From Pseudomonadota bacterium (GTDB lineage: Bacteria > Pseudomonadota > Gammaproteobacteria > Burkholderiales > Gallionellaceae), in NCBI GenBank assembly GCA_021787435.1, contig JAJYLY010000008.1:6319-70318 (forward strand): 64,000 bases of DNA, given 5' to 3'. Below are positions 17,639 through 55,866 of this stretch, piece by piece. The notes under the pieces are model-generated. The model had not been told where the DNA came from. It worked only from the letters and a program-made list of their open reading frames with translations, and ran no database searches. Both the position numbers and the translations under genes were made by a program. Position 1 is the first letter of the stretch. Every line of letters begins with the position of its first letter.

Positions 17639-17648
17639 GATGACTTCC

Positions 17649-18632: not shown

Positions 18633-18658
18633 TCCTCGATCCTCAATCCTGAATCCTG
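18567..18658. repeat. imperfect palindromic intercistronic element, copy B (arnC / formyltransferase junction)
   Basis: + strand arms GGATTGAGGTTTGAGG (18569-18584) and CCTCGATCCTCAATCC(TGAATCCTG) (18634-18658). The left arm is followed by TTTGCGAAAATC, as in copy A. Confidence 0.7.
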
Positions 18659-21143: not shown

Positions 21144-21151
21144 ATGGAAAC

Positions 21152-22534
21152 ATGCCCGAAAATCCTACGTTTTGGGATACCATGATTAAAAACTGCGACA
21201 AAATGACAGACAACACACCAGAAAAAAACGAATCAGATCTGCCAGCGCCCTATGGACGCAATATGCAGCTGTTGCGAATGCTGGGTCTGGCAATTGTGGT
21301 CGGCATACTGGGCGCATTGGCAGTACTGGCGTTTCATCAGTTGCTGCTTGTGCTTGAATCCACAATCTATGGGTTAAACCAGGGCTTGGTGGCCGATGCT
21401 GCGCATCTGCCACCTGAAATCCGCGTCATCACTCCTGCCGCTGGCGGGCTTGTTGCCGGAATAATGCTACAGTATTTTCTCAGGCGCAAGGAAACCGGCG
21501 CAGATTATATGGAAGCCATCTCCGCAGGCAGTGAAATTCCTTTGCGCTCTTCTCTGCTGAAATCGGCAGCATCCGCCGCCACGGTGGTCTCGGGCGGCTC
21601 GATAGGGCGAGAAGGCTCCATGGTGCAGCTTGCAGCTTTGTCGGGAAACATGCTGGGGAAAATTCTAAGAGTATCTCCTGTCGAACAGCGTTTTGCAGTG
21701 GCCTGTGGCGCGGCAGCAGGGCTTGCAGGCGCTTACAACACGCCGATTGCAGGTGCTCTGTTTGTCGCTGAAATCGTACTGGGCGGCATCAGCGTAGGCA
21801 GTTTCGGCCCCCTTCTGCTTGCAGCGGCCATTGCCGACTCTGTGGTGCGACATGTCAGTCGCGTCGGGCCCATTTTTTCAGCAACACCTGGCAATCTGCA
21901 AAGCCTGCCGGAGCTCTTGCTGGTTGTTGCTACGGGGATTGTGGCAGGATTACTGGGTCCGTTGTTTATCGCCTCATTGAATTACGCACACCGGAAGCTG
22001 TCTGAATTACGCCTTCCTCTATGGATCAAAATGATGCTCGCAGGGCTAGCTGTCGGCGGACTTTCCGTAATCAGTCCCGAAGTCTGGGGCAATGGCTACT
22101 CGGTGGTAAACTCATTGCTGCACGAAACCTGGATATGGCAAAGCGTGCTGCTCATTCTAGTGCTCAAGGTCATCGCCACTGTGTTGACATCAGGGTCAGG
22201 CGCGGTCGGCGGCGTATTCACGCCAACCTTGTTTGTCGGAGCTGCATTGGGTACGCTGGCAGGGAGCGCGGTGCATACCATATTGCCTGATGCATCGATG
22301 ACAGCGTATACGCTAGTCGGCATGAGCGCCTTCCTTGCTGCAGTCACCCACGCACCGCTCACCGCTGTGGTGATGATCAGCGAGATGACCGCCGGGTACG
22401 ACCTCGTTCCCGCGCTGGCACTGGCAAGCTTGGCCGGTTACTATGTATCATCGGTGCTGCATCCAGGGTCAATTTACGCTCGCTCTATCCCTCAAACCCA
22501 TCCCACACAGACGCTGCCATCCACCTATCTGTGA
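21152..22534 (+). CDS. ClC-family chloride channel / H+-Cl- antiporter
   Basis: Selectivity motifs GSIGREGSMVQL and GGVFTPTLFVGAALG. Multi-TM throughout. The exact start is uncertain. Confidence 0.85.
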   Translation: MPENPTFWDTMIKNCDKMTDNTPEKNESDLPAPYGRNMQLLRMLGLAIVVGILGALAVLAFHQLLLVLESTIYGLNQGLVADAAHLPPEIRVITPAAGGLVAGIMLQYFLRRKETGADYMEAISAGSEIPLRSSLLKSAASAATVVSGGSIGREGSMVQLAALSGNMLGKILRVSPVEQRFAVACGAAAGLAGAYNTPIAGALFVAEIVLGGISVGSFGPLLLAAAIADSVVRHVSRVGPIFSATPGNLQSLPELLLVVATGIVAGLLGPLFIASLNYAHRKLSELRLPLWIKMMLAGLAVGGLSVISPEVWGNGYSVVNSLLHETWIWQSVLLILVLKVIATVLTSGSGAVGGVFTPTLFVGAALGTLAGSAVHTILPDASMTAYTLVGMSAFLAAVTHAPLTAVVMISEMTAGYDLVPALALASLAGYYVSSVLHPGSIYARSIPQTHPTQTLPSTYL

Positions 22535-22553
22535 AATCCTTGCATATGCCGTG

Positions 22554-23678
22554 CTAACCCAGCACATCGACCAACGCACTGCACACCCGCTCGACATCCT
22601 TCTCGTTCATAGCATAAAACATCGGCAAGGAGACGATTTGTTTCCCGACCTGTTCTGCGATCGGGAACATGCCATCACTAAATCCCCGCTCGCGATACAA
22701 CTTGAAAAGATGGATGGGCGCATAGTGAAAACCGATGCCAATATTGTGTTTTTCCTTCATCTTTTCCATGAACTGTGGGCGCGCAATGCGTCCCGGTAGC
22801 ACGATCTGGAACAGGTGCCAGTTGGTGTTCTCGTAATCTTCAGGGGGCAGCCTGGCGCCTGTCCTCGCCTCAAAATCATTACCCAGTAGATTGAAATAGT
22901 GTTGTGCCAGCTTGCGTCTGTGCGTTGTGATCGCATCCAGTTTCGCAAATTGTCCCAGGCCGATCGCGGCTGCAATATCGGTCATGTTGTATTTTCCGCC
23001 CAGCACATCCACCTCGATGCCGTCCCAACCGCTGCGCACCACACCTTGCAGACGGTATTTTTCCGCAAGCAGCGCCTCTGCCTCGTTATTCATAACAAGA
23101 CAGCCGCCTTCTGAGGTGGTGATGTTCTTGTTAGCCTGAAAACTGAACGAGACAAAGTCACCAAATGATCCTATGGGTTTACCTTGCCACGATGATCCTA
23201 TCGCCTGTGCGGCATCTTCGATCACACGCAGTTTATGCTTTGCTGCGATTGCATATAGCCTGTCCATGTCCAGCGGCTTGCCTGCAAGAAGCACAGGAAT
23301 AACAGCTTTCGTACGCACTGTAATCGCTGCCTCAAGCTTGGCAAGATCGATGTTGCGCGTTAAAGGGTCAATGTCGGCAAACACCGGAGTCGCCCCCACT
23401 TCGAGGATCACGTTGGCGGTGGCCACCCATGAAACGGGGGTTGTGATCACCTCGTCACCAGGCCCGATGCCCGCAATGCGCAATGCGATCTCCATCGTAC
23501 AGGTACCGGAATTGAAAGTGCGCACGGGGCGCCCGCCAAAGTATGCGGAAAGCCTATTTTCAAATTCAAGCACCTTGGGACCGTTGGTAATCCAGCCAGA
23601 ACGCAATGTGTCTACCACCGACGAGATGGTCGCCTCGTCTATGGTAGGTCTGGAAAAGGGTAAAAAAGTATTATTCAT
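22554..23678 (-). CDS. arnB: UDP-4-amino-4-deoxy-L-arabinose--oxoglutarate aminotransferase
   Basis: MNNTFLPFSRPTIDEATISSVVDTLRSGWITNGPK parallels E. coli ArnB. DegT/DnrJ/EryC1 fold with a SFQANKNIT lysine motif. ATG 23678 is preferred over GTG 23705. Confidence 0.85.
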   Translation of the reverse strand: MNNTFLPFSRPTIDEATISSVVDTLRSGWITNGPKVLEFENRLSAYFGGRPVRTFNSGTCTMEIALRIAGIGPGDEVITTPVSWVATANVILEVGATPVFADIDPLTRNIDLAKLEAAITVRTKAVIPVLLAGKPLDMDRLYAIAAKHKLRVIEDAAQAIGSSWQGKPIGSFGDFVSFSFQANKNITTSEGGCLVMNNEAEALLAEKYRLQGVVRSGWDGIEVDVLGGKYNMTDIAAAIGLGQFAKLDAITTHRRKLAQHYFNLLGNDFEARTGARLPPEDYENTNWHLFQIVLPGRIARPQFMEKMKEKHNIGIGFHYAPIHLFKLYRERGFSDGMFPIAEQVGKQIVSLPMFYAMNEKDVERVCSALVDVLG

Positions 23679-23679
23679 T

Positions 23680-24051
23680 TTATGCTCGCGAAATAATGAC
23701 GACACCCAGGATGATTATTGCCATGCCGATGAGCTTGGTCGGATTGAATGCCTCCCCCAGAAAATACCATGCCGCCAGCGCATTGACCACATAGGCCATG
23801 GACAGCATCGGAAACGCGATGCTCACCGGCACGCGCGACAACGCAAGTATCCACACTACCACGCTGATTCCATAGCAGACCAGGGCTGCGATGATGTGCC
23901 ACTCGGTCCCAAGCTTAAGTCCAATCGGCAGGATATTCTGCATGCTGAATTCAAAATGCCCGATGGCATTGGTGCCGGCCTTCATTAATATCTGCGCGGT
24001 CGCGTTGAGCATCACCCCGGTAAATATCAGCGCGAAGCTGACCAAATTCAT
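23680..24051 (-). CDS. ArnE/ArnF-like small EamA/SMR-type membrane protein (putative L-Ara4N-undecaprenyl phosphate flippase subunit)
   Basis: 123 aa with 4 predicted TM helices. It sits between arnT and arnB with overlapping or abutting stops and starts. Only one such gene is present. Confidence 0.6.
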   Translation of the reverse strand: MNLVSFALIFTGVMLNATAQILMKAGTNAIGHFEFSMQNILPIGLKLGTEWHIIAALVCYGISVVVWILALSRVPVSIAFPMLSMAYVVNALAAWYFLGEAFNPTKLIGMAIIILGVVIISRA

Positions 24052-25700
24052 GGCTTTTCCACCACGATATGCTGCCTGTCCTGAAAAATAATTTTCATCT
24101 TCAGCCCCATTCTTTGAAGTATCGGATAAACCTGGACCTGCATGATCGCCAGTGCCTTAGGTTGATCTGCCCATACCTTGGCAAAATCTGCCAGCGTTGG
24201 CACCCAGCGCCATGGCTCTTGTTCGATGCCAAACTTCATCTCGTCCTGATACTGCACCAGTGTGAAGGTGCGTTTGAGATAAAACGGCAGGGTCTGCTCG
24301 TAAGTCAGCACGGAATAAAAAGGAATATCCGGTTTCACATCGGCACGTATCGCCTCAGCAATATGTTTCGCAGATCGCTCGCGAGCCACGGTATTGTAAC
24401 CTGACACACCGAGCTGCGCGGCAAGCAGGCTTGCCAGCGAAATGATCAGCGCAGCAGGGAATTTATTTTCCTTCCACAACAGTCGCATGCCGACCAGCAA
24501 TCCCGTTAACAAAATCAGTGAGGCAGAAACCAGCCAGACGGCGTAATGCGGATACAACTCCATCTGGTTAGGCGTGTCGGCAAATCTGCCGACATTGGCA
24601 GACACACCGAGCAACAGCAGGGCAACGGGTATCACCGCGGCAACATACCAGAACAAAAGTCGTTCGCGGATTTCGACCAGACGGCGCCCCATCAGCAGGG
24701 CCAGCGCGGGAAACATCGGCAACAGATAGGATGGTAGCTTGGAGTCAGAAATGGAAAAAAACACGTATATAAAAACCGCCCAGATCAATAAAAACAAAGT
24801 GGCATGGAACGGTTTAGTGTCTGTCCTGGATGCAGTGGGTTTACCGATATGGAACAAAGAGTCGAACAATAGCAGAGTCCATGGCAAGGCGCCTGACAAC
24901 AGGATGGGGACGAAATAATACCAGGGCTGATAGCGCCCCAATTCTTTCGTCATGAAACGCGTGTAATGCTCATAGATGAAAAAGCGCTGAAAGAATTCGG
25001 GGTTGGCTTTGATGACAAGATAAAACCAGGGCACCGTGATCAGCAGAAACAAGCAAAAGCCGGCCAGCCAATGCATGCGTTTTAACACTGAGAAATCGCG
25101 CCTCACCGCGCAATAAATAAACACTGCGGTGCCAGGCAGAACAATGCCCATCAGCCCCTTAGACAGCACTGCCAGCCCCATGCCGGCCCAAGCCAGCATC
25201 ATCCAGTTCCGACCTGCCTGCCGGGTGGTGCCATGTTGCGCGAGCAAAAAAGAAAACACGCCTAGCGTGATAAAGAATGTCACCCCCATATCCAGCGTAT
25301 TGATATGGCCCATCATTGCATACAGCATGCTGCTGCCAAGCAGCATCGCGGCATAGTTTGCCTCGTCCCGGCCAAACAGCCGCAATCCGGTGAACCACAC
25401 CAGCAGCAACCCCGCAAATCCGGTCAGCCCGGTCCAAAGGCGCGCAGTCCACTGATGCTCGCCAAAAACTTCGTAAGCCGTTGCAGTAGCCCAGTATTGC
25501 AGCGGCGGCTTCTCGAAATACTTGAGACCATTCAGGCGCGGCGTGACCCAATCGCCACTAGCCAGCATTTCACGGGGAATTTCCGCATAGCGGCCTTCAT
25601 CCGGTTTAATCAGCGTGCGGTATTCTAGATTGGAAAACCAGATCAGCGCGACTGTCACCAGCAACCACCAGAGTTGCCTGTCAGAGATTCGATTCGTCAT
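24048..25700 (-). CDS. arnT: 4-amino-4-deoxy-L-arabinose lipid A transferase (GT39/GT83-type)
   Basis: N-terminal KPDEGRYAEIPREMLASGDWVTPRLNGLKYFEKPPLQYW signature, about 12 TM helices, and a soluble C-terminal domain. Confidence 0.85.
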   Translation of the reverse strand: MTNRISDRQLWWLLVTVALIWFSNLEYRTLIKPDEGRYAEIPREMLASGDWVTPRLNGLKYFEKPPLQYWATATAYEVFGEHQWTARLWTGLTGFAGLLLVWFTGLRLFGRDEANYAAMLLGSSMLYAMMGHINTLDMGVTFFITLGVFSFLLAQHGTTRQAGRNWMMLAWAGMGLAVLSKGLMGIVLPGTAVFIYCAVRRDFSVLKRMHWLAGFCLFLLITVPWFYLVIKANPEFFQRFFIYEHYTRFMTKELGRYQPWYYFVPILLSGALPWTLLLFDSLFHIGKPTASRTDTKPFHATLFLLIWAVFIYVFFSISDSKLPSYLLPMFPALALLMGRRLVEIRERLLFWYVAAVIPVALLLLGVSANVGRFADTPNQMELYPHYAVWLVSASLILLTGLLVGMRLLWKENKFPAALIISLASLLAAQLGVSGYNTVARERSAKHIAEAIRADVKPDIPFYSVLTYEQTLPFYLKRTFTLVQYQDEMKFGIEQEPWRWVPTLADFAKVWADQPKALAIMQVQVYPILQRMGLKMKIIFQDRQHIVVEKP

Positions 25701-31734: not shown

Positions 31735-32795
<1,061 letters not shown>

Positions 32796-32949: not shown

Positions 32950-34971
32950 ATGTCAGCTGGTCTTGGCTTTGCGTTGTTGTGTGCATCCATAGCAATTTTG
33001 TACGGCATATTTTCCATCAAATGGATACTGGACAAACCGACTGGCAGTGAAAAAATGCGAAGTATCGCCGCTGCGATACAGGAAGGCGCTACCGCCTACC
33101 TTAACCGGCAATACCTCACCATAGGCCTGGTTGGCCTCATCCTGTTCATCCTCATCTTTATAGCCTTGGGCTGGCAAACCGCTACAGGATTTGCAATAGG
33201 CGCCCTGCTTTCGGGTGCTACCGGGTTCATCGGCATGAACGTATCCGTGCGCGCCAATGTGCGCACTGCTGAAGCGGCTAAGGACGGCCTTAATGCCGCG
33301 TTGAATGTCGCATTTAAAGGCGGCGCCATCACAGGCATGCTGGTGGTGGGTTTGGGGTTGTTAGGTGTTGCAGGCTATTACACATTCCTGACCCATAATG
33401 GCGACACCCTGACAGAAGCCACCCACGCATTGGTGGGGCTAGGTTTTGGCGGCTCTTTGATTTCCATCTTCGCTCGCCTTGGCGGAGGCATTTTCACCAA
33501 GGGTGCAGACGTAGGCGCGGACCTAGTGGGCAAAGTCGAAGCCGGGATACCGGAAGATGACCCGCGCAATCCAGCGGTGATTGCCGACAACGTAGGCGAC
33601 AATGTCGGCGATTGCGCAGGCATGGCAGCAGATCTTTTCGAAACCTACGCGGTCACCATCATCGCCACCATGATGCTGGGCGGCCTGTTGATGAAAAATG
33701 CAGGCGAGAACGCGGTGATTTTCCCGCTGGTGCTGGGTGGCTTCTCCATCATTGCCTCCATCATCGGCACTTTCTTTGTCAAGGCCAGGCCCGGCGGCAA
33801 GATCATGAACGCCTTATATCGTGGCCTTGCGGTGTCCGCCATATTAGCGCTGATCGCTTTCTATCCGCTAACCGACTGGATCATGAAAGACAACGGTGTC
33901 TATAGCGTGAGTGCGCTGTATGGCGCGACCGTCATCGGACTGTTGCTCACCGCAGCCCTGGTCTGGATCACCGAATACTATACCGCCACCGAATATGCAC
34001 CGGTGCGCCACATCGCCTTCGCTTCCACCACAGGGCACGGCACCAACGTGATCGCGGGTCTTGGTGTGTCCATGAAATCCACCGCAGCCCCTGTGCTGGC
34101 AGTGTGCATGGCCATCATGGGCGCGTATTCACTGGCTGGCCTTTATGGCATCGCCATCGCCGCCACTGCGATGCTCTCGATGACCGGCATCATCGTGGCA
34201 CTCGACGCCTACGGCCCGATCACCGATAACGCAGGCGGCATTGCCGAAATGGCAGGCTTGCCGGAAGAAATTCGCAACATCACCGACCCGCTCGACGCGG
34301 TTGGCAACACCACAAAGGCGGTCACCAAAGGCTACGCCATTGGCTCTGCAGGACTGGCAGCGCTGGTGCTATTTGCCGATTACACCCATGCGCTGGAAGC
34401 ACACTCACACAGCGCCATGCTGTTTGACCTGTCCGACCACATGGTGATCGTCGGTCTGTTCATCGGCGGCATGGTTCCCTATCTGTTCGGTGCGATGGGC
34501 ATGGAGGCGGTAGGTCGTGCTGCTGGCGCAGTAGTTGTTGAAGTTCGCCGCCAGTTCAAGGAAATTCCCGGCATCATGGAAGGGACAGGAAAACCTGAAT
34601 ACGGCACTTGTGTGGACATGCTGACCAGGGCTGCGATCAAGGAAATGCTCATCCCTTCGCTTTTGCCTGTCGCCGTACCTGTCATCGTGGGTCTCACGCT
34701 GGGTGCTCAGGCACTGGGCGGCGTGCTGGTGGGTACCATCATCACCGGAATCTTCGTCGCAATCTCGATGACCACAGGCGGTGGCGCATGGGACAATGCA
34801 AAAAAATACATCGAGGAAGGCAACTACGGAGGCAAGGGTTCTGAGGCGCACAAGGCGGCCGTTACCGGGGACACCGTGGGCGACCCATACAAGGATACCG
34901 CAGGACCTGCGATCAACCCGCTGATCAAGATCATCAACATCGTCGCGCTGATGATCGTCCCGCTGCTTTGA
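32950..34971 (+). CDS. hppA: membrane-bound proton-translocating pyrophosphatase
   Basis: 673 aa, about 16 TM helices, with signature motifs [41 protein letters not shown] and [14 protein letters not shown]. Confidence 0.95.
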
Positions 34972-35695: not shown

Positions 35696-36661
35696 CTAAG
35701 CCTTGGCCGGTTTGCCTGCCTTCTGATCGGGAAAATCCGTGATGCCAAGCAGATATTTCTCGCTTATCAGTTTGCTTTCTTCATGCAGGAATTCGAGAAA
35801 TACTTTGGCGAGCACAGACAGTTGCTTGTCCTTGGCATAGGCCAGATACCAGTGGCGGCGTATCGGAAACCCTTCCACGTCGAGAATCACAAGCTCATCT
35901 GCGCTGCGTTCAAGCGCAAGTGTGTGCGCAGACACCACCGCGATCCCCAGCCCGCCTGCGACAGCCTGCTTGATTGCCTCGTTGCTGCCAAGTTCCATCC
36001 TGACCTTGAGTTTCAACCCTCGCTCGGTGAAAAATTTTTCGGTGGCAAGGCGTGTGCCTGAACCCGCCTCCCGCATCAGGAACGGCTCTTCAGTAATGCG
36101 CTTGGGCGGAATATCCTTTGCGTTCGCAAGGGGGTGGTTGCGCGCAGCCAGCACCACCATCGGGTTTTCCAGAAAAGGGGTCAACTCGACATCCATATGT
36201 TCAGGCGGCTGCCCCAGAACATACAAGTCGTCGAGATTATCCGCCATACGTTGCAACATGCGCTCACGATTTTCCACCTTGAGAGACACATCTATGCCGG
36301 GATAACGCTGGCAAAATAACCCTAGCAGGCGTGGCACAAAATACTTGGCGGTGGTGATCACCGATAATTTCAGTCTACCTGCCTTGACGCCTTTCATGTC
36401 CGACAACAACATCTCGAAACGCGAAAGGCCGTCGAAAATATCCCGGCAAACCTTGAGTAGTTCACGTCCCACATCGGTTAAAAATACCTTCTTCCCGATC
36501 TGCTCGACAAGCGGCTGTCCAACAATATCCGTCAGCTGTTTAAGCTGGATAGATACCGTCGGCTGTGTGGTGTGCAGCTCTTCGGCTGCCCGGGTGAAAC
36601 TCAAGTTGCGCGCAACCGCTTCAAAGACTTTCAGCTGACGTAACGTGGCATTCTTGATCAT
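35696..36661 (-). CDS. cbbR: LysR-family regulator divergent from cbbL
   Basis: LRQLKVFEAVARNLSFTRAAEELHTTQPTVSIQLKQL wHTH plus a LysR substrate-binding domain. The divergent position upstream of RuBisCO genes is typical of CbbR. Confidence 0.8.
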   Translation of the reverse strand: MIKNATLRQLKVFEAVARNLSFTRAAEELHTTQPTVSIQLKQLTDIVGQPLVEQIGKKVFLTDVGRELLKVCRDIFDGLSRFEMLLSDMKGVKAGRLKLSVITTAKYFVPRLLGLFCQRYPGIDVSLKVENRERMLQRMADNLDDLYVLGQPPEHMDVELTPFLENPMVVLAARNHPLANAKDIPPKRITEEPFLMREAGSGTRLATEKFFTERGLKLKVRMELGSNEAIKQAVAGGLGIAVVSAHTLALERSADELVILDVEGFPIRRHWYLAYAKDKQLSVLAKVFLEFLHEESKLISEKYLLGITDFPDQKAGKPAKA

Positions 36662-36823: not shown

Positions 36824-38245
36824 ATGGCAGTCAAGACCTACAACGCCGGTGTAAAAGAATACCGGCAAACTTACTGGACGCCGGAATACACGCCGCTGGA
36901 TACCGACATTCTCGCTTGCTTCAAGATCACACCTCAACCTGGCGTGGATCGCGAAGAAGTCGCGGCTGCGGTGGCTGCCGAGTCTTCAACCGGTACCTGG
37001 ACTACGGTGTGGACCGACCTTCTGACCGACCTCGACTACTACAAGGGCCGCGCCTATCGCATCGAAGACGTACCAGGCGATGACACCTGCTTCTACGCAT
37101 TTGTTGCATACCCTATCGATCTGTTCGAAGAAGGCTCCGTGGTCAACGTGCTGACTTCTCTGGTGGGTAACGTATTCGGCTTCAAGGCCTTGCGTGCACT
37201 GCGTCTGGAAGACGTGCGCTTCCCGATCGCCTACGTGAAGACCTGCGGCGGCCCGCCACAAGGTATCCAGGTTGAACGCGACAAGATGAACAAGTATGGC
37301 CGTCCACTGCTAGGCTGCACCATCAAGCCTAAACTGGGTCTGTCTGCTAAGAACTATGGGCGCGCTGTTTATGAGTGCCTGCGCGGCGGCCTGGATTTCA
37401 CCAAGGACGACGAGAACGTCAACAGCCAACCCTTTATGCGCTGGCGCGACCGTTTCGAGTTCGTACATGAGGCAACGTTGAAGGCAGAACGCGAGACCGG
37501 CGAGCGCAAGGGGCACTACCTGAACGTCACCGCTCCAACGCCTGAAGAGATGTACAAGCGCGCAGAGTTCGCCAAGGAAATCGGCGCACCGATCATCATG
37601 CACGACTACCTGACTGGCGGCTTGACAGCCAATACCGGCTTGGCCAACTGGTGCCGCAACAACGGCATGCTGTTGCACATCCACCGCGCGATGCACGCCG
37701 TGCTCGACCGCAACCCGCACCACGGCATCCACTTCCGCGTGCTGACCAAGGTATTGCGTCTGTCTGGTGGTGATCACCTGCACTCGGGCACTGTGGTTGG
37801 CAAGCTGGAAGGCGACCGCGAAGCAACGCTGGGCTGGATCGACACGATGCGCGACGAGTTCATCAAGGAAGATCGCTCACGCGGCCTGTTCTTCGATCAG
37901 GACTGGGGCTCGATGCCAGGCGTGATTCCTGTCGCATCCGGCGGTATCCATGTATGGCACATGCCAGCACTGGTCAACATCTTTGGTGATGACTCGGTCT
38001 TGCAGTTCGGTGGCGGCACACTGGGCCACCCATGGGGCAATGCAGCAGGTGCAGCGGCTAACCGTGTCGCGCTTGAAGCCTGCGTCGCAGCACGCAACCA
38101 GGGCATCGCAATCGAGAAGGAAGGCAAGGCCATCCTGACCAAGGCAGCAGAAAGCAGCCCCGAACTGAAGATCGCCATGGAAACATGGAAGGAGATCAAG
38201 TTCGAATTCGACACAGTCGACAAACTGGACGTGGCTCACAAGTAA
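36824..38245 (+). CDS. cbbL: RuBisCO large subunit, form IA (green-like)
   Basis: [45 protein letters not shown]..., [23 protein letters not shown] (carbamylated Lys region), 473 aa. Confidence 0.97.
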
Positions 38246-38282: not shown

Positions 38283-38311
38283 TTCCCATACCACATTTGA
38301 AAGGAAATGAA

Positions 38312-38668
38312 ATGTCTGAAGTAATGGATTACAAAAGCCGCCTGTCTGATCCTGCCAGCCGCAAGTTCGAGACTTTCTCCTACTTGCCAGCGATGACAGC
38401 AGCAGAAATCAAGAAACAGGTCGAGTACCTGGTTTCCAAAGGCTGGAACCCGGCTATCGAGCACATCGAGCCAGAGTATTTGATGGATTCGTACTGGTAC
38501 ATGTGGAAACTGCCGATGTTTGGCGAAACCGATGTTACCAAGGTTCTGGCCGAAGCCGAAGCCTGTCACAAAGCCAACCCGAACAACCACGTGCGTCTGA
38601 TTGGTTACAACAACTTCAATCAGTCACAAGGTGCGGCGATGGTGATTTTCCGCGGCAAGACTGTTTAA
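38312..38668 (+). CDS. cbbS: RuBisCO small subunit
   Basis: [44 protein letters not shown]. Start taken at ATG 38312. Confidence 0.9.
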
Positions 38669-38711: not shown

Positions 38712-38781
38712 CAGTGCATGGACCAAAGTGACTTGAAATCGGTTGCTTTCGCCCCTGTGTTGAATGTTAGACGGAGAACGT

Positions 38782-39588
38782 ATGAGCAACGATATCCTTC
38801 AGCAGTACCGTATCGAAAAAGAACCCTATTATCGCCCCGTCTCTGACGAAGTCGAGTTGTACGAGGCGACCTACAGCGTGCGCATGCCGATGATGCTGAA
38901 AGGCCCGACTGGTTGCGGCAAATCCCGTTTTGTCGAGCATATGGCCTGGAAGCTTGGCAAACCGCTGATCACCGTCGCCTGCAACGAAGACATGACGGCA
39001 AGTGATCTGGTCGGCCGTTTCCTGCTCGATGCGGATGGCACGCGCTGGCAGGATGGCCCGCTTGCAATAGCCGCGCGTTATGGTGCAATCTGCTATCTGG
39101 ACGAGGTTGTCGAAGCGCGTCAGGACACCACGGTGGTGATTCACCCCTTGACCGACAACCGCCGCGTTTTGCCTCTGGAAAAGAAGGGTGAGCTGGTCAA
39201 GGCGCATCCCGATTTTCAACTTGTCATTTCCTATAATCCCGGATATCAGAGCCTGATGAAGGATCTGAAACAATCCACAAAGCAGCGTTTCGGCGGACTG
39301 GATTTCAACTATCCTGAACATGGCATCGAAACGGAAATCGTCGCCCACGAAACGAATGTCAGCGCGGAAGTGGCTGACAAGCTTGTCTCCATTGCTGAGC
39401 GCGCCCGAAATCTCAAGGGGCACGGCCTGGATGAAGGCATCTCGACACGCATGCTGATCTACGCAGGCAGCCTCATTGCCACCGGTGTCGACCCGATCAA
39501 GGCCTGCCGCGTAGCGCTTGTTCGTCCGATTACAGACGATCCTGACATGCGCGATGCACTCGATGCCGCAGTGACCACATATTTTTGA
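38782..39588 (+). CDS. cbbQ: MoxR-type AAA+ ATPase CbbQ (RuBisCO activase subunit)
   Basis: [40 protein letters not shown] (Walker A), [10 protein letters not shown] (Walker B). 268 aa from ATG 38782. Confidence 0.9.
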
Positions 39589-39642
39589 TCATGCAGGGTT
39601 GCCTTGCGGCTCACCCTGCATGATGATTTGGGTAAAGTGACC

Positions 39643-41982
39643 ATGTCGATCAATCTTGAAGATTATCAGGAACTGCTGGCTGAGCTTTCGCCGGAATTGC
39701 AGAGCAGTCTGCATTCTGCGTGGCTCGAAGCCACGAAAGTTTTCAGCGCACGGGGACTGGACAACTATCTCAAGGGTGCTGCAGCGCTGAAGAGCCTGGG
39801 CAAAGGCGATGAGCTGATTGCCACCTGGATAGACCATGCACCGATGGTGGCCAAGGAAATCGGCGAGGATGCCGTCCCTGACCTTGTGCAAACCGCGCTT
39901 ACACTGGCATCCAAGACCTCCGCAACCGTAATCGAACTGGTCCTGACTACAGCACCGACTGCTGCCAACCGGCTGGGTGACGAACATCTGTTTCGCGCCT
40001 ATCTGCAATTTCTGAACACCCTGCTCTCGCAAGCGCCGCGCGGTGTTAGACCGATGCTGGAAAATCTGGAAATGCTGTTCAGCCAGCTAACACTGGGTGG
40101 TCTGCGCCGCTGGGCGCTGTGGGGCGCGCACGCGCATCGCACCAATTATCCCGAGCAGGCAAGCTATTTCAGCCTGCAGTCCAAAGAGTCGCAGGCGATA
40201 CTGCAGAAAGAACGCAAGGGTACGCTGTTCATCGATGTGCAGCGCCGTATCAACATGTATCTGCGCGCGCTGTGGGCGCGGGATTTTTTCATGAAACCCA
40301 CTTCCGGAGACTTCGAGACGCGTGAAGGATACCGGCCGTTCGTGGAAGGTTATTTTATCCATCTTCCCGACGCTTATGATGATTTCACCGTTGGCGAAAC
40401 CAAGCTGCCGGGTCTTGCGATGTATCGCGCCGCAGCCGCGCACAGTGCCGCACATATCGTCTACACCCGCGAACCGATTTCGGCCGAAGCACTCAACCCG
40501 CTCCAGATGGCTGTGATCAGCGTGATCGAGGATGCGCGCGTGGAAACGCTGGCGGTGCGCAAATTTCCTGGTTTAAAGCAGCTCTGGTCAGTATTCCACA
40601 CAATAGAATCGACCAGCGCAAAGTCTGCAGGAGATTATTTCAATCGTCTGGCGCGCGCGCTGCTGGACGAATCTTATCAGGACAACGATCCCTGGATTGT
40701 GCAGGGGCGGTTGTTGTTCAAGCAGGCGGCAGATCGCCTGGAAAACAATCAGGTGTCCTGGGATATCGGCGTGCAACTGGCCCATGAATTCATGAGCAAG
40801 CGCATCGCATTCAACCCCAGAAGCGATCTCTTAACCGCTCTCTATCGCGACGACAATCGCTATTTCTGGGAATTCAAGGAGTTTGATTTCGACAAGGCCA
40901 TGGCGGCAGGCTATGAAGCGCCCAAACAGGTGCGCAAGCATGTCAGCCTGATGGAGTTCGCCAACGAGATCGATGTCGAAAATGCAGGTGACGATGCGGA
41001 AGAAATCTGGGTGCTGGGCACCGAGCTGTTCCCCTATGAGGACCTTGGCGTCTCCTTTAATGAGATGGAAGGCAAGGAACCCGTCTCCGAACCCTATCAT
41101 TATTCGGAATGGGATTACCAGATACAGCTCGAGCGACCCGCATGGGCAACAGTGCTCGAAAAACGGCCAAAGATGGGTGAGTTGCAGCTGATAGACGATA
41201 TTGTTCATCAGCACAAGCGCACCATAGGTCGCCTCAAATTCTTGCTCGATGCGCTGCAGCCGCAGGGGGTGACGCGCATCCGCAAACTCGAGGATGGGGA
41301 CGAGGTCGACATCAATGCGGCGATTCGTTCCATGATAGACATACGCATGGCGCAGCAACCCGACCCGCGTATCATGATGCGGTCTGTGCGCAAGGTGCGC
41401 GACATTTCCGTGATGGTGCTGCTTGATCTTTCCGAGTCCACCAACGAAAAAGTGGCAGGACAGGATTACAGCGTGCTCGACTTGCAACGTCAGGCTACCG
41501 TGCTTTTAGCCGATGCAATACACAAGATAGGCGACCCCTTTGCGATACACGGTTTTTGTTCGGATGGCAGGCACAATGTAGAATATTTCCGTTACAAGGA
41601 TTTCAACCAGGCATACAATGACGAACCTAAGTCGCGTCTTGCGGGAATGAAAGGGCAGCTGTCCACGCGAATGGGTGCTGCCATCCGCCACGCGGGACAT
41701 TACCTGAACCAGCAGAAGTCGTCGAAAAAACTGCTTCTGGTGCTTACCGACGGGGAACCTGCCGATGTAGACGTGCGCGATCCGCAATATTTGCGTTTTG
41801 ACACCAAAAAGGCGGTAGAAGAATTGGCGCGTTCCGGCGTGAATACTTTCTGCATGTCGCTTGACCCCAGAGCCGACCAGTATGTGTCGAGAATCTTTGG
41901 GGCCAAGAACTATATGGTCGTCGATCATGTAGAACGTTTGCCGGAAAAACTGCCGGCACTCTATGCGGGACTGACAAGATGA
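39643..41982 (+). CDS. cbbO: CbbO (von Willebrand factor A domain RuBisCO activase adaptor)
   Basis: Large protein following cbbQ with a C-terminal VWA/MIDAS region (VMVLLDLSESTN ... LLLVLTDGEPADVD). Start likely ATG 39643. Confidence 0.85.
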   Translation: MSINLEDYQELLAELSPELQSSLHSAWLEATKVFSARGLDNYLKGAAALKSLGKGDELIATWIDHAPMVAKEIGEDAVPDLVQTALTLASKTSATVIELVLTTAPTAANRLGDEHLFRAYLQFLNTLLSQAPRGVRPMLENLEMLFSQLTLGGLRRWALWGAHAHRTNYPEQASYFSLQSKESQAILQKERKGTLFIDVQRRINMYLRALWARDFFMKPTSGDFETREGYRPFVEGYFIHLPDAYDDFTVGETKLPGLAMYRAAAAHSAAHIVYTREPISAEALNPLQMAVISVIEDARVETLAVRKFPGLKQLWSVFHTIESTSAKSAGDYFNRLARALLDESYQDNDPWIVQGRLLFKQAADRLENNQVSWDIGVQLAHEFMSKRIAFNPRSDLLTALYRDDNRYFWEFKEFDFDKAMAAGYEAPKQVRKHVSLMEFANEIDVENAGDDAEEIWVLGTELFPYEDLGVSFNEMEGKEPVSEPYHYSEWDYQIQLERPAWATVLEKRPKMGELQLIDDIVHQHKRTIGRLKFLLDALQPQGVTRIRKLEDGDEVDINAAIRSMIDIRMAQQPDPRIMMRSVRKVRDISVMVLLDLSESTNEKVAGQDYSVLDLQRQATVLLADAIHKIGDPFAIHGFCSDGRHNVEYFRYKDFNQAYNDEPKSRLAGMKGQLSTRMGAAIRHAGHYLNQQKSSKKLLLVLTDGEPADVDVRDPQYLRFDTKKAVEELARSGVNTFCMSLDPRADQYVSRIFGAKNYMVVDHVERLPEKLPALYAGLTR

Positions 41983-42281
41983 CACAACAAACTTATGTAG
42001 GTATAGACCAGGATAGCAATGCAGGACTGACGCATCTTGGCCGTATGGTGCGGGACGCCTGGATATTCGGAATTCTGCCCGAGACAGAAACCTGTGCGGG
42101 CTGGGATGCCTCGCGCATGCAGAATTTGTACGAGAAGGTGTATGCGGCTTGGGAACCCTATGCTCATCTACCCAGCCGTCTGCCCGAAGCCTTGCGTGAA
42201 AAGCACGCGCGCTTTTACGCTAATGCGATTGATAATGCGCGCGGAGAAGGATGGGACCCCGAGCTCGGTGATGACGATTAA
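41979..42281 (+). CDS. cbbN: small conserved-position ORF after cbbO (cbbN-like, function unknown)
   Basis: 100 aa with an ATGA start/stop overlap with cbbO. Position and size match my recollection of the fifth gene of the Nitrosomonas europaea cbbLSQON operon. No motif recognised. Confidence 0.55.
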   Translation: MTQQTYVGIDQDSNAGLTHLGRMVRDAWIFGILPETETCAGWDASRMQNLYEKVYAAWEPYAHLPSRLPEALREKHARFYANAIDNARGEGWDPELGDDD

Positions 42282-42688
42282 TCAGCGTTTGGCGCAGGGA
42301 ACTTAAGCACGCGCGCAAAACCGCTGAATCGCCATTTTTCAGCAAGTTCATTCAGTGCGCGGGGAAATTCGGCCTGCAGACGCGACATGATGTCAGCCGC
42401 ACCGGCTTGATAGTAAACAGCCTGATAGGCCACCGGTTCGTCGAGCGATATACGGTTTTGCGGCTGGAATTTTCGCCACGCGATGTCGATCCAGCATTTT
42501 CGTTCGCCGTCGAGGAAGATGAGCTCCTCCTCATCCAGAATGGCCAGGTATTGCATGGAACGAATCGGGATGAACAGGCAACCATTGATAGTTCTGGCAA
42601 GCAGGGTATGTGCCAGGTTATAAGTCGCGGCAGGCAGCGAGCGTGGCTCGCTGGCGATTTCAATGTCCCGGTAGCAGGTGATTTCCAT
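42278..42688 (-). CDS. hypothetical protein (136 aa), no family recognised
   Basis: Long ORF filling the gap between cbbN and purC. Its stop overlaps the cbbN stop by 4 nt. Its start is 23 nt from the divergent purC start. Confidence 0.45.
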
Positions 42689-42711: not shown

Positions 42712-44232
42712 ATGAAAAATGCACTCTTTCAATCGGACATCAAGAGTCTGAAATTGCTCAATCGCGGCAAGGTTCGCGACATTTACGAAGTGGACAAGGA
42801 TCATCTGTTGATCGTCACGACCGACCGCCTATCCGCTTTCGATGTGGTGCTGCCGACGCCGATACCCGGCAAGGGTGCGGTGCTGACCGCCGTCGCGAAT
42901 TTCTGGTTCGGCAGGCTTCAGCATATCATCCCCAACCAGTTGACCGGGATCGATCCTGCATCCGTGGTGGCAGAGAGCGAACGCGAACAGGTAATCGATC
43001 GCGCAATAGTCGTGAAAAAGTTGAAGCCACTGCCGATAGAAGCCATCGTTCGCGGCTATCTGGTGGGATCGGGCTGGAAGGAATACAAAAAGGAAGGCAG
43101 TGTCTGCGGCATTGCGTTACCCGCCGGACTCTGCGAAGCAGACAGGCTGCCGGAGCCGCTCTTCACCCCCTCCACCAAGGCGGAAATGGGCGCACATGAT
43201 GAAAATATCAGCTACGAAAAAGCAGAGGAGTTGCTGGGTAAAGAGCTGGCAGCAAAGGTGCGCGATGTTTGCATCGCGCTTTACAAGGAGGCTGCCGCTT
43301 TTGCATTGGACAAGGGCATCATCATCGCCGACACCAAGTTCGAGTTCGGTCAGGATGATGAAGGCAAGCTTTATCTGATCGACGAAGCGCTCACCCCGGA
43401 TTCTTCGCGTTTCTGGCCTGCGGATCAGTATCAGCCCGGCAGCAACCCGCCCAGTTTCGACAAGCAATATGTGCGCGACTGGCTGGAGGCGAGCGGTTGG
43501 AACAAAAAGGCGCCCGGCCCCGAATTGCCGGCAGATGTCGTTGCCAAAACCACGGAGAAATACCGATTGGCCTTAAGGTACTTGACGCAGAGCCATATCG
43601 AAAAGCTGGTCTCGGGCTATGTGAGGTTTCGCAAAAATACTTACGAAAAAAATCAGGCTCTGTTTGAACGTTTGACCAGACAGGGACAGTCTCCCAAGAC
43701 GATCGTGGTCGGCTGTTGCGATTCAAGAGTGGATCCTGCGATCGTGACCGATTGCGATCCTGGCGACCTGTTCATCATACGCAATGTCGCCAATCTGGTG
43801 CCGCCATTTGAGAAAAGCGGCAATTTTCACGGCACCAGCGCTGCGCTCGAATTTGGCGTATGCCATCTCGAAGTAGAGAACATCATCGTGCTGGGCCACG
43901 CCCAATGCGGCGGCATACAGGCGCTGTTAAACCAAGCAACGGAGACAACACAGCAAGATGGATTCATCTCCGGCTGGATGAATGTCGCAAGCCATGCGCG
44001 CAACCGCGTGTTGTCCAGAATGCCCGAAAAACCCATGGAAGAACAGGCGCGCGCCTGCGAGCATGAAGCAATCCTGGTGTCGCTGGACAACCTTCTGACC
44101 TTCCCGTGGATACTGGAACGGGTTGCAAGCAAGAAGCTGGCGCTGCACGGCTGGTATTTTGATATGGATCGCGGCGAACTGCTGCGATATAACCCGGCCA
44201 GCAACCGCTTCGAGGCGTTTCTGGTTCAATAG
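42712..44232 (+). CDS. purC: fusion protein: SAICAR synthetase (PurC, ~aa 1-295) + beta-class carbonic anhydrase (~aa 296-506)
   Basis: N-terminal part: [54 protein letters not shown], ending ..[11 protein letters not shown] as in long-type PurC. It continues without a stop into [15 protein letters not shown]...[18 protein letters not shown]...[12 protein letters not shown]...[13 protein letters not shown], which carries the beta-CA zinc ligands and the Asp-Arg dyad. Confidence 0.85.
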
Positions 44233-44258
44233 ATCATTTACATCAGGAGCAATTCAGC

Positions 44259-44780
44259 ATGGCAAAAAAGAAAACGGCGCCCAAAATACTGGTCGGCATA
44301 CTCACAGGCAGCCCCAATGACCTGCCCACGGTGGTCAAAGTGCGCGATACCTTGAGCGAACTCGGAATCGCCAGCGAAATCGTCGTGGCATCTGCTCATC
44401 GCACACCGGACAAGGTTTTAAACTATATTGAGCGCGCTCACAAGGAAGACGTGCAGGTGTTGATAGGTTGCGCAGGCGTTGCTGCGCACTTGGCCGGCGT
44501 CATTGCAGGCCATACCCGGTTGCCGGTGATAGGGCTTCCACTCTCCGGCGGCGTGATGTCAGGCCTGGATGCATTGCTCTCAACTGTACAGATGCCGCCC
44601 GGCGTACCTGTGGCGACCGTGGCAGTGGATGGCGCAAAGAATGCCGCCATGCTGGCTGCACGCATCTTGGCATTGAAATTTCCTGAAATCAACAATGCGC
44701 TGGACCTTGCCGCAAAAAAGGAACGCGCACGGTATGATCAGACTGCGAATGAGGCTCTGGCAAAACTGACTCAAAAATAA
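44259..44780 (+). CDS. purE: N5-carboxyaminoimidazole ribonucleotide mutase
   Basis: ASAHRTPDKV, GCAGVAAHLAGVIAGHTRLPVIGLPL, VATVAVDGAKNAA. Confidence 0.9.
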   Translation: MAKKKTAPKILVGILTGSPNDLPTVVKVRDTLSELGIASEIVVASAHRTPDKVLNYIERAHKEDVQVLIGCAGVAAHLAGVIAGHTRLPVIGLPLSGGVMSGLDALLSTVQMPPGVPVATVAVDGAKNAAMLAARILALKFPEINNALDLAAKKERARYDQTANEALAKLTQK

Positions 44781-44853: not shown

Positions 44854-46314
44854 TTATCTATCCTCACGGGCAAGATGAGTATGTTTAAGTGCGGATTTAC
44901 TGTGATAATAGGCTAGTTTGCGATGCACAACCCTGGTTGAATGCCTGCCTGCCAAGCGTCTGTAATGCGAAATTGGTCGGGCCGCCTGCAACCTTTGTTC
45001 CGGTTTGACATGTTCCCACTCGGCATTCCAGTTTCTCAGCGTACTGATGCTGACATGGTAGCGGCGCGCCAGCTTGTTTAAGGAATCGCCTTTGCGCACG
45101 ATATATCCTTCGCTCTCCGGCGTATTCAGACTGTCAGCTTGCAGATTCATATTGAAGGGTTGAAATCCATTTTCATCGGATTCCGCGCTGACGGGGACCA
45201 GCAGCGTCTCGTTGGTGCTGATACGCGCACGCGCTGATAAACCGTTAACGGCTTTTAACTTTTCAAGGGTGAGACCAAAACGCGGTGCCAAGTGATCTAA
45301 CCTCTCCCCCATCTTGGCATGATAGGCCTGCCAGCTGACTAATGGTTTATCGTACTTCTGAAGATTGCTTTGAAATGTATCAACCTTATCCACCGGCAAC
45401 AATATGTAATCGGTGTTGTCATGCAGTATCACAGGTCGGTTGTTTTCTGGATTCAGCGCGACGAATTCGTCCTTAGGAATGTCCGCCAACTGTGCGACGA
45501 GTTTGACGTCAATAGGTTTGCTGGTAGGAACTACGGCAAAATAAGGCTTGTTAGGAATGTCTGACAAAGTCAGGCCGTAGCTGGACGGATTGCTAACGAT
45601 ATTTTTAATTGCCAGCAGTTTAGGCAAATAATTGCGTGTCTCATCTGGCAGCTTCAGACTTTCATAGTCAACCGGCAAGCCTTTTCTGCGGTTTTTTTCC
45701 TGGGCGCGCTGCACTGCCCCCTCCCCCCAGTTATAGGCCGCAAGCGCCAAGCGCCAGTCGCCGAACATATCGTGCAGTTTTTCCAGATAATCCAGCGCAC
45801 TTTGCGTAGCACTGATGATGTTGCGCCTACCGTCATACCACCAGTTCTGCCTCAGGCCAAAATTTCTGCCGGTGGCGGGGATGAACTGCCAGATGCCGGA
45901 GGCGTTGCTGACAGAATGCGCGCTGGGGTTGAACCCGCTTTCTATCATTGGCAGCAGCGCGATTTCGCTGGGCATACCACGTTTTTCGACTTCGTTCGTA
46001 ATGTAATAAAGATATCGGCTTGCCCTGTCCATCATGCGTGCAAAATACTCGGGTTTGCTGGCATACCACTGTTCGTGTTTGGCGATCAAGGAACTATCCA
46101 TGGCCGGCATGGCAAAACCCTCTCTCAGGCGTTGCCAGATATCTCCCTGACTCAGCGGATCCTCCGGCAGGAGTGTCAACTGAACGTTATGAGCATTCGT
46201 GAAGGTCAGCGGTGCAGCATCCAGCGACTTACTCAGCGTGAGCTTATCTTCTGCATGTGCGTTAAGCGCAACTGTTGCAAACAGCAGTGTAAGAATCAGT
46301 TTGATCAATGGCAC
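44854..46314 (-). CDS. mltD: membrane-bound lytic murein transglycosylase D-like (SLT domain + LysM repeats)
   Basis: Lipoprotein or signal N-terminus, ESGFNPSAHSVSNASGIWQFIPATGRNFGL catalytic region, and LysM segments (YIVRKGDSLNKLARRYHVSISTLRNWN). Confidence 0.8.
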   Translation of the reverse strand: MPLIKLILTLLFATVALNAHAEDKLTLSKSLDAAPLTFTNAHNVQLTLLPEDPLSQGDIWQRLREGFAMPAMDSSLIAKHEQWYASKPEYFARMMDRASRYLYYITNEVEKRGMPSEIALLPMIESGFNPSAHSVSNASGIWQFIPATGRNFGLRQNWWYDGRRNIISATQSALDYLEKLHDMFGDWRLALAAYNWGEGAVQRAQEKNRRKGLPVDYESLKLPDETRNYLPKLLAIKNIVSNPSSYGLTLSDIPNKPYFAVVPTSKPIDVKLVAQLADIPKDEFVALNPENNRPVILHDNTDYILLPVDKVDTFQSNLQKYDKPLVSWQAYHAKMGERLDHLAPRFGLTLEKLKAVNGLSARARISTNETLLVPVSAESDENGFQPFNMNLQADSLNTPESEGYIVRKGDSLNKLARRYHVSISTLRNWNAEWEHVKPEQRLQAARPISHYRRLAGRHSTRVVHRKLAYYHSKSALKHTHLAREDR

Positions 46315-48518: not shown

Positions 48519-51033
<2,515 letters not shown>

Positions 51034-54774: not shown

Positions 54775-55866
54775 TCATCCCGTGCGCCATATCCGGCAGG
54801 CGCCCTCATCAGACACCATGCAGGGGCCGATTGGGTGGCGCGGCGTACAGGCAGTATTGAAAAGCCTGCATTCGTCGGGATAGATTTTTCCCAGCACCAC
54901 GCGCGCGCAGTCGCAGCCAGGCGGCATCTCACCTGACCGCTTGCGGTCCTCCGTTTCATATTCCGCAAATACCTTGTGCGCATCGTATTTTGCAAAGCGC
55001 TCTGACAGTTCAAAACCGGATGCCGGGATGATGCCGATGCCTCGCCAGTTTGCATCGACGACATGCAGCACATTTTTGAGATGCGTTTGCGCCAGCGCAT
55101 TTCCGCCATTGCGCACCACCTCAGAATAACAGTTGTCGAGAAAATATTTTCCTTCCTGCAACTGACGCAACACGGAATAGATTGCGGCAAGCAGGGATGC
55201 CGGCGAAAACCCCGCGACTGCAGCCGGAATGCCATGCCGCTCCACCACAAAGCCCCACTCCTCCGGCCCCATCACGGTGGCGACATGGCCCGGCGCGATC
55301 AACGCATCAAAACCTGGCGCTTCTGAGTCAAGCAACATCGCCACCGCAGGCCAAGTCAGCCTGCACGAGAGCAACAGAAATAAATTATCCGGCACGCCTT
55401 CCATCAGCATCGCAGCCACAGGCGCCGTGGTGGTCTCGAAACCCGCGACGAAGAACACCACTTGCCGGCCGGGATTTTCCCTAGCAATTTTCAGCGCCTC
55501 CTGCGGACTCGATATCGGACGTATATCCGCACCTTTGGCCTTAGCTTGCTCCAGTGAGCGCGGTTCCATTTTTGGCACATTCACCGGCACGCGCAGCATG
55601 TCGCCGAAGGCTGCCAGGATAACGCCGGCGCGAAGGGCAAGCTGCATTGCAAGATACACATCTTCTTCCGGGCACACGCATACCGGACAGCCTGGGCCAG
55701 GAATCAGCTCAACATTCCGGGGCAACGCACTGCGCAGACCTGCCATAGAAATGGAGCGCTCGTGCCCACCGCACACGTTCATGATGCGCACGCGGCCTGC
55801 AAGCGACAGCGCGCGGATTCTGTCAAGCCAATGCTGAGCGCTTTTCAGCCTATCTTCAGTGAACAT
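54775..55866 (-). CDS. hypD: [NiFe]-hydrogenase maturation protein HypD
   Basis: MNVCGGHE, PGPGCPVCVCP, GFETTTAP, and a C-terminal Cys cluster CDCARVVLGK..C..CTPRHPIGPCMVSDEGAC. All motifs appear intact. Confidence 0.85.
   Translation of the reverse strand: MFTEDRLKSAQHWLDRIRALSLAGRVRIMNVCGGHERSISMAGLRSALPRNVELIPGPGCPVCVCPEEDVYLAMQLALRAGVILAAFGDMLRVPVNVPKMEPRSLEQAKAKGADIRPISSPQEALKIARENPGRQVVFFVAGFETTTAPVAAMLMEGVPDNLFLLLSCRLTWPAVAMLLDSEAPGFDALIAPGHVATVMGPEEWGFVVERHGIPAAVAGFSPASLLAAIYSVLRQLQEGKYFLDNCYSEVVRNGGNALAQTHLKNVLHVVDANWRGIGIIPASGFELSERFAKYDAHKVFAEYETEDRKRSGEMPPGCDCARVVLGKIYPDECRLFNTACTPRHPIGPCMVSDEGACRIWRTG

Follow-up and report, generated by a model that had tools for sequence, protein, structure and literature searches.

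The window analysed here is a 64,000-nt stretch of contig JAJYLY010000008.1 (positions 6,319 to 70,318) from the Gallionellaceae assembly GCA_021787435.1. It carries a gene in which purC, encoding the phosphoribosylaminoimidazole-succinocarboxamide (SAICAR) synthetase of purine synthesis, is joined in frame to the coding sequence of a beta-carbonic anhydrase (CA). The fusion gene, purC::CA, is a single open reading frame (ORF) followed directly by purE. It lies downstream of an operon for a form IA RuBisCO. The positions of these features are collected in Table 1.

Both modules of the encoded 506-aa protein are complete. The Pfam family SAICAR_synt (PF01259) covers residues 16-268 (E 1.5e-74, 251 bits, cutoff 20). 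The NCBIfam PurC equivalog PRK13961, a profile of 297 positions, covers residues 3-295 with 468 bits against a cutoff of 251, and the match is therefore full-length. Pro_CA (PF00484) is found at residues 331-490 (E 1.2e-46, 159 bits, cutoff 25.7). Since profile positions 2-156 of 156 are matched, the CA domain is also complete. The second domain is thus Pro_CA and not AIRC (PF00731), as it is in PAICS-type proteins; AIRC is found instead in the product of the next gene, purE. The closest structures of the PurC half are the long-type PurCs of Mycobacterium abscessus (3R9R/6YVQ) and yeast (1A48), and 121 columns are invariant across the aligned fused and unfused PurC sequences. The initial annotation had described an uninterrupted ORF of 506 codons containing a complete PurC and a complete beta-CA without a linker, with purE 26 nt behind it, and the domain coverage, the motifs and the PurE family score bear this out. 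Its limits for PurC, residues 1-295, need a small correction: the PurC module ends at Q293 and the CA module starts at S294 (43590|43591). There is no in-frame ATG 3' of the junction. The sole start-like codon nearby is a GTG at residue 304, which lacks a Shine-Dalgarno sequence, so the CA can be made only within the fusion protein.

A lost stop codon or a frameshift from sequencing or assembly, or a recent read-through in one genome, could in principle create such a gene. The fused and two-gene states are only 11 nt apart, and some related long-read metagenome-assembled genomes (MAGs) do contain frameshifts (L043 and L030). Against this explanation, the same in-frame junction is present in contig L082, which encodes an identical protein in the same ORF with the same neighbours. 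L082 differs at 23 of 7,644 nt (99.70% identity) and is thus an independent assembly of a close strain. Among 5.8 billion clustered proteins, 27 clusters (P0001-P0027) carry PF01259 together with PF00484, at identities from 100% down to 67%, and the same junction is retained down to 76% identity. The linker-less junction LT[QE]|SHI[DE]KL is common to 24 divergent fused sequences that were aligned. The fused clusters derive from ENA, NCBI, JGI and Logan sources. In one cluster, P0012, the fused PurC-CA is longer by about 60 aa at its C-terminus, probably because of read-through or a frameshift.

The species representatives of GTDB were scanned with the CA half, giving 80 loci. In six species, purC and the CA gene form one frame without a stop (loci L001-L004, L021 and L023). 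These are Gallionella sp. UBA4121, Gallionella sp. MAG 25, Gallionellaceae SMAG_U9450 and three further Proteobacteria MAGs. A separate purC lies immediately 5' of the CA gene in 39 loci, and no purC is found 5' of it in the other 35. L043 was rejected as a fused locus; it comes from a frameshift-ridden long-read MAG and has an ATGA overlap at the junction. The fusion is restricted to one small clade of uncultured iron- or sulfur-oxidising bacteria, and most relatives keep separate proteins. Between fused genes, dS is above 1 and saturated, and dN/dS is 0.05-0.11 in the PurC half and 0.05-0.15 in the CA half. Saturated dS with low dN/dS indicates that the fused state is old and that both domains are under purifying selection. 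An artefact therefore has next to no probability, and the architecture in the initial annotation extends well beyond the assembly in which it was noticed.

Other proteins that combine the two domains were also sought. HMMER, run exhaustively over 1.84 billion representative proteins, gave no other PurC-CA fusion among the best 150 matches. P0251 and P0253 were ruled out as candidates: each is a PurC within which some 170 residues are duplicated in tandem, probably by misassembly. Other kinds of PurC fusion do occur among the representative proteins, namely PurC-PurE, PurE-PurC, PurC-PurS and AI-2E transporter-PurC (P0312, P0363, P0258, P0305, P0326 and P0252). Literature searches brought up no account of a PurC-CA fusion, in line with what had first been supposed.

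The origin of the fusion can be read from the junction DNA. In the nearest relatives without the fusion, the Sulfuricella-type loci L007, L008 and L010, the junction reads ...CTG ACG GAG GTT TGA CA ATG AGT CAC ATC. The purC gene ends with a valine codon and a stop, the CA start follows after 2 nt, and the GGAG Shine-Dalgarno sequence of the CA gene is inside the last purC codons. The corresponding fused junctions are ...CTG ACC GAG AGC CAC ATC in L001 and ...ACG CAG AGC CAT ATC in the window. The fused genes lack exactly 11 nt: GTT, TGA, CA and ATG. In the 39 unfused loci, purC and the CA gene are 2-15 nt apart or share an ATGA stop/start overlap, and the more remote relatives have such overlaps. 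This comparison indicates that the ancestor was a translationally coupled purC-CA pair. An 11-nt deletion between the already coupled genes is the simplest cause of the fusion. It would have taken the final codon and the stop of purC, the spacer and the start codon of the CA gene, and so joined the frames. Since the coupled pair is present in 39 of the 80 loci, mostly inside Calvin-Benson-Bassham (CBB) clusters, the fusion hardens an old operon link.

A single origin has no clean support. The unfused L014 is sister to the fused L023 in 198 of 200 neighbour-joining bootstraps, although it keeps the homologous 11-nt spacer (gttgggtcatg; the junctions are near 1886-1904 in L014 and 7000 in L023). 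This placement implies that the same deletion happened twice or that recombination took place at the junction. A differently joined PurC-CA, P0026 (L081 647-2161), belongs to a Gallionella-type lineage. Its junction reads ...RLTAQV|TAPKQL..., a GTGA relic is left in the DNA, and its PurC is 87% identical to that of the unfused L066. P0026 is known from one ENA metagenome contig only, and either the fusion arose independently there or the assembly has a 1-nt error; to that extent it speaks for the artefact explanation.

The CA half has the catalytic residues of an active enzyme. The motifs CCDSRV (residues 335-340) and GHAQCGG (395-401) supply the zinc ligands C335 (43714-43716), H396 (43897-43899) and C399 (43906-43908). 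The D337/R339 dyad and Q326 are also in place. C335, D337, R339, H396 and C399 align to C160, D162, R164, H220 and C223 of pea beta-CA. The CxDxR and HxxC motifs are kept in every fused homologue. Among solved structures, the CA half comes nearest to pea beta-CA (1EKJ; E 2.6e-50, about 50% identity) and to Synechocystis CcaA (5SWC; 5.6e-37), and the match to E. coli Can (1I6O; 5e-20) is far weaker. The half scores 75.9 bits against a cutoff of 251 with PRK10437, the family of Can-type (type II, allosteric) enzymes, and falls outside it. It is 77-84% identical to ordinary stand-alone CAs of 212 aa from Sulfuricella (including S. denitrificans skB26) and Sulfurimicrobium lacus. The two halves have probably retained SAICAR synthetase and CO2 hydration activity, respectively.

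Some beta-CAs (type II) have allosteric bicarbonate sites. The CA half could accordingly be regulatory or catalytically inactive, acting for instance as a sensor of CO2/bicarbonate by which PurC is modulated, and the replacement of pea Tyr205 by Phe in the 1EKJ alignment could be taken in this sense. The complete active site, the high identity to ordinary CAs, and the closeness to the highly active plant-type 1EKJ instead of the allosteric Can all argue in the other direction. The change from Tyr205 to Phe is expected to slow proton transfer only modestly. A purely regulatory CA half is therefore very improbable.

The genes around purC::CA are of known kinds. The upstream operon is of form IAq, with a form IA cbbL followed by cbbS, cbbQ and cbbO. 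The closest PDB entry of CbbL is the form IA enzyme 1SVD (1004 bits), compared with 618 bits for the form IC enzyme 1BXN. No carboxysome shell or CsoS families were found among the window ORFs scanned, a set that covers distant ORFs below about 300 aa only partly. The carboxysome-less form IA RuBisCO proposed in the initial annotation is thus supported. The annotation also gave the right distance between the operon and purC, about 0.4 kb; this interval is not empty, however, and is occupied by a conserved ORF on the reverse strand, orf136. orf136 converges on orf100 with a 4-nt overlap, and its start is 23 nt from that of purC. By tblastn, more than 20 related loci encode a protein with 53-80% aa identity at this position, and orf136 is called as a gene in L082. 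Because of this conservation, orf136 is probably a real gene tied to form IAq clusters. Most form I loci retain orf100 behind cbbO. It is the counterpart of the 'small (100aa) hypothetical protein' noted for the form IAq cluster of Sideroxydans ES-1 (PMC3770913). The divergent LysR-type regulator is probably cbbR, judged by its position.

Table 1. Features of the purC::CA locus and its surroundings, in window coordinates
Feature	Position	Strand	Basis or remark
purC::CA fusion gene	42712..44232	+	Single ORF, 506 codons plus stop; Pfam SAICAR_synt + Pro_CA
PurC (SAICAR synthetase) module, residues 1-293	42712..43590	+	PRK13961 equivalog; closest structures long-type PurCs
Fusion junction CAG|AGC CAT (Q293|S294 H295)	43588..43596	+	Site of ancestral 11-nt deletion
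Beta-CA module (plant-type), residues 294-506	43591..44229	+	Pfam Pro_CA; closest structures 1EKJ/5SWC
purE, class I N5-CAIR mutase	44259..44780	+	TIGR01162, 170.1 bits vs cutoff 149.6; 26 nt 3' of fusion gene stop
orf136, conserved hypothetical protein (136 aa)	42278..42688	-	Between cbb operon and purC; no Pfam/NCBIfam match
orf100, 100-aa protein ending form IAq cbbLSQO clusters	41979..42281	+	4-nt overlap with cbbO; no family match
cbbO, VWA-domain RuBisCO activase adaptor	39604..41982	+	Pfam VWA; synteny with cbbQ
cbbQ, AAA+ RuBisCO activase	38764..39588	+	Pfam CbbQ_C + AAA_5
cbbS, RuBisCO small subunit	38297..38668	+	Pfam RuBisCO_small
cbbL, form IA RuBisCO large subunit	36824..38245	+	Pfam RuBisCO_large
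Divergent LysR-type regulator (cbbR-like)	35696..36661	-	Pfam HTH_1 + LysR_substrate

The purE gene is preceded by an AGGAG Shine-Dalgarno sequence. Its translation contains 'ASAHRTP' (SAHR) and 'GCAGVAAHLAG' (AAHLAG), the motifs of class I. No purK, second CA or dissolved inorganic carbon transporter was found in the 64-kb window, and purK was also not found beside any related locus examined. Two candidates for purK were ruled out: the gene between purE and purC in Gallionella loci (L065) encodes a fructose-1,6-bisphosphatase (FBPase), and the 392-aa gene after purE in L001 encodes a class II fructose-1,6-bisphosphate aldolase. Scans for promoters and terminators near the locus yielded no signal above that expected from shuffled sequence, and an Rfam search of the window gave no match.

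Further genes of the window were recorded as well. In the window, purE is followed by an MltD-like lytic transglycosylase gene (44854-46314, reverse strand). Two other genes, purA (adenylosuccinate synthase, 48519-49829, -) and adk (31738-32397, +), lie about 5-11 kb from purC::CA-purE. A membrane pyrophosphatase gene (32950-34971) is just upstream of the cbbR-like gene, and hypD at 54775-55866 hints at a hydrogenase. Positions 15614-25700 resemble a cluster for lipid A modification with 4-amino-4-deoxy-L-arabinose. It includes an ArnA C-terminal-like UDP-xylose synthase (16598-17788), an ArnB-like aminotransferase (22554-23705), ArnT (24048-25700), a GT2 glycosyltransferase and a polysaccharide deacetylase.

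The linkage of purC, CA and purE is wider than the fusion and occurs in two types of CBB cluster. The form IAq type has the order cbbL-cbbS-cbbQ-cbbO-orf100-(orf136, reverse strand)-[purC]-CA-purE-cbbA-like aldolase. The form II type has the order cbbM-cbbQ-cbbO-fbp-purE-purC-CA and matches what has been described in Sideroxydans ES-1 and Gallionella ES-2 as a '7 gene cluster' that includes 'a carbonate dehydratase' (PMC3770913). A literature search for purC or purE in cbb clusters gave nothing specific. In L040 (4226-7624) and L065 (4404-7618), the order is cbbM-cbbQ-cbbO-fbp-purE-purC-CA or cbbO-purE-fbp-purC-CA, and a DUF4124 gene lies downstream on the reverse strand. In L001 (2570-3748), L007, L008, L010, L013, L014, L017, L021-L026, L028, L030 and L031, purE is followed by a CbbA-like class II ketose/fructose-bisphosphate aldolase, 392 aa long and extended C-terminally by about 100 aa. 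The window lacks this gene. Gallionella sp. UBA4121 (L001) has two purC-CA pairs on one contig, at 481-3748 (+) and 8772-7130 (-). The first is the fused gene with purE and the aldolase. The second is unfused, with an ATGA overlap, and is of the Gallionella (form II-cluster) type; its CA is N-terminally extended to 240 aa.

These clusters bear on the question of which carboxylation the CA serves. It could serve RuBisCO only, by converting imported bicarbonate to CO2. In that case purC and purE would be passengers, and the fusion would be a neutral accident of adjacency without a meaning for purine synthesis. About 12 loci (for example L013, L017, L019, L024-L026, L028, L030, L031 and L072) have a CA of the same subfamily directly behind the cbb cluster, with no purC, and the RuBisCO link is for this reason at least as strong as the purine link. 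The purC-CA-purE module is itself flanked by a CBB aldolase or FBPase, and a single 11-nt deletion suffices to create the fusion. There are also precedents. In Thiomicrospira crunogena, a beta-CA gene follows cbbM-cbbO-cbbQ (Tcr0421-0424), and its product is presumed to serve that RuBisCO (PMC1635747). A beta-CA gene adjoining CBB genes is described in a preprint on Ferrigenium, where the enzyme is likewise thought to serve RuBisCO. A role confined to RuBisCO does not account well for several other loci, however. purC and the CA gene remain tightly coupled where no cbb genes are found within at least 6 kb upstream (L006, L018 from Propionivibrio and L035 from Muproteobacteria). purE is also repeatedly adjacent, including CA-purE pairs without purC (L017, L026, L028, L030 and L031). 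Form IAq and form II clusters, although differently ordered, share purE, purC and CA, which hitch-hiking explains poorly. We regard a role limited to RuBisCO as possible but doubtful. A functional tie of the CA to the carboxylation of aminoimidazole ribonucleotide (AIR) gains comparative support from the 39 coupled loci, some of them without cbb genes and often with purE adjacent.

In the purine pathway, PurK uses bicarbonate and ATP to carboxylate AIR. The product, N5-carboxyaminoimidazole ribonucleotide (N5-CAIR), is unstable; class I PurE turns it into carboxyaminoimidazole ribonucleotide (CAIR), which is the substrate of PurC (PMC9376930; PMC10484210). CA provides bicarbonate for anabolic carboxylations such as that of PurK (PMC13622662). 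Channelling of the unstable N5-CAIR from PurK to PurE has been proposed but never demonstrated (PMC10484210). PurC-CA and PurE could accordingly form a dedicated physical or kinetic unit for AIR carboxylation, in which the CA supplies inorganic carbon or recaptures CO2 lost from N5-CAIR or CAIR. The initial annotation had suggested that the fusion might deliver bicarbonate or recapture CO2 in this way. Such a unit might even be independent of PurK and save ATP: AIR and CO2 would form N5-CAIR spontaneously, and PurE and PurC would carry it on to CAIR and SAICAR.

The conserved purC-CA-purE linkage is consistent with such a unit, as is the instability of N5-CAIR, and purK was seen in none of the examined clusters. 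In E. coli, high CO2 rescues purK mutants. Fusion of PurC to the carboxylation machinery has precedents in the bacterial PurC-PurE proteins (P0312, P0363 and P0258) and in the PAICS of animals (PMC9376930). Diffusion of CO2 and bicarbonate is, on the other hand, too fast for proximity to count much. purE is not adjacent to the fusion in L002-L004, and the fusion is confined to its small clade while most relatives have separate proteins. This explanation is thus unlikely. The same holds for its extended form, in which PurC-CA and class I purE in CBB clusters are a dedicated AIR-carboxylation module, possibly with PurK-independent entry of CO2 into purines upon RuBisCO induction; we consider it improbable. 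If it were true, the recurrent fusions (possibly two in the main clade, plus P0026) would reflect selection for physical coupling.

We favour, at a probability of about 0.6, a genuine and maintained bifunctional enzyme whose CA half equilibrates cytosolic CO2 and bicarbonate for both neighbouring carboxylation systems, with the fusion fixing 1:1 co-expression. CA is needed for bicarbonate-dependent biosyntheses in general, and few genomic indications of a joint function are stronger than the fusion of two genes. Little direct evidence ties any particular CA to purine carboxylation. We infer the activities of both halves, the direction in which the CA works and what the fusion may bring as follows. 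The PurC half would ligate aspartate to CAIR, and the CA half would interconvert CO2 and bicarbonate in the cytosol. The CA would keep bicarbonate available to PurK, which feeds PurE, and PurC would pull the unfavourable carboxylation of AIR forward. At the same time, the CA would keep CO2 available to the cytosolic RuBisCO. The fusion would add obligatory 1:1 co-expression and co-localisation without a substrate channel. Channelling would be needless, because CO2 and bicarbonate diffuse freely and PurC uses neither. The long-type PurCs of M. abscessus and yeast are monomers. If this holds for the fusion, a monomeric PurC could decorate a CA oligomer without steric clash.

Several points weigh against a bifunctional enzyme that serves both carboxylations. 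The gene for PurK, the enzyme that consumes bicarbonate, was found neither in the window nor beside the related loci, so it must lie elsewhere. The partner to which the CA is fused, PurC, uses neither CO2 nor bicarbonate. The fused loci L002-L004 lack an adjacent purE, and the active site has Phe in place of pea Tyr205. Both enzymatic activities are deduced from sequence. The AlphaFold2 model, built from a mixed alignment of 63 sequences, has a mean predicted local distance difference test score of 59.9 (below 50 in the junction region) and a predicted template modelling score of 0.42, too poor to judge whether the oligomeric states of PurC and CA are compatible. Adjacency by itself could account for the fusion, and its functional consequence may be small.

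The architecture ties the handling of inorganic carbon to purine synthesis. It is a clean 'Rosetta-stone' case whose origin is legible in the DNA, and it exposes a broader and little-discussed placing of purE, purC and CA inside CBB clusters. No UniRef or nr source tag is attached to any fused cluster. The only names given to the fused proteins by their sources are JGI labels, which read PurC or, in one case, carbonic anhydrase. Since these labels name one domain only, the CA would escape surveys of the inorganic-carbon 'toolkit' of iron- and sulfur-oxidising Betaproteobacteria. The locus offers an expressible protein and a defined gene set for asking if CA activity is limiting for AIR carboxylation when inorganic carbon is scarce. 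It also bears on a possible co-regulation of purine carboxylation and RuBisCO in autotrophs and on any kinetic gain from physical coupling.

Several known systems resemble the fusion in part. The cbbM-cbbO-cbbQ-CA cluster of T. crunogena likewise ends a carboxysome-less RuBisCO/CbbQO cluster with a cytosolic beta-CA (PMC1635747). In that cluster, no purC or purE is reported and the CA stands alone, whereas the CA of the window is fused to PurC. Pea beta-CA (1EKJ) and CcaA (5SWC) share the Cys/His/Cys zinc site, the Asp-Arg dyad and the active-site Gln with the CA half. They differ in being stand-alone or carboxysome-targeted, and pea has Tyr205 where the fusion has Phe. The SulP transporter-CA proteins (Felce and Saier 2004, cited in PMC1635747) too fuse a beta-CA to a protein that depends on inorganic carbon in its function; their partner is a membrane anion transporter, and that of the window is a soluble biosynthetic ligase. 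PAICS, with PurC at its N-terminus (PMC9376930), and the bacterial PurC-PurE and PurE-PurC proteins (P0312, P0363 and P0258) also join SAICAR synthetase to a protein of the AIR-carboxylation step. Their second domain has the PF00731 fold and acts on the nucleotide, whereas that of the fusion is a zinc beta-CA (PF00484) which acts only on CO2 and bicarbonate, and purE is separate. The closest counterparts are the separate purC-CA pairs in the CBB clusters of Sulfuricellaceae and Gallionellaceae (for example Slit_0022... / Galf_0034-0040 of Sideroxydans ES-1 and Gallionella ES-2; PMC3770913). They are orthologous (PurC 70-86% and CA 54-84% identical) and have the same order and neighbours (cbbQ, cbbO, purE and FBPase or aldolase) as the fusion. 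Those pairs are made as two polypeptides from genes 2-15 nt apart or overlapping by ATGA, and in the fusion 11 nt are gone and one protein of 506 aa is made. Both domains and the gene neighbourhood are thus of known kinds, and the architecture of PurC and CA in a single polypeptide is apparently new.

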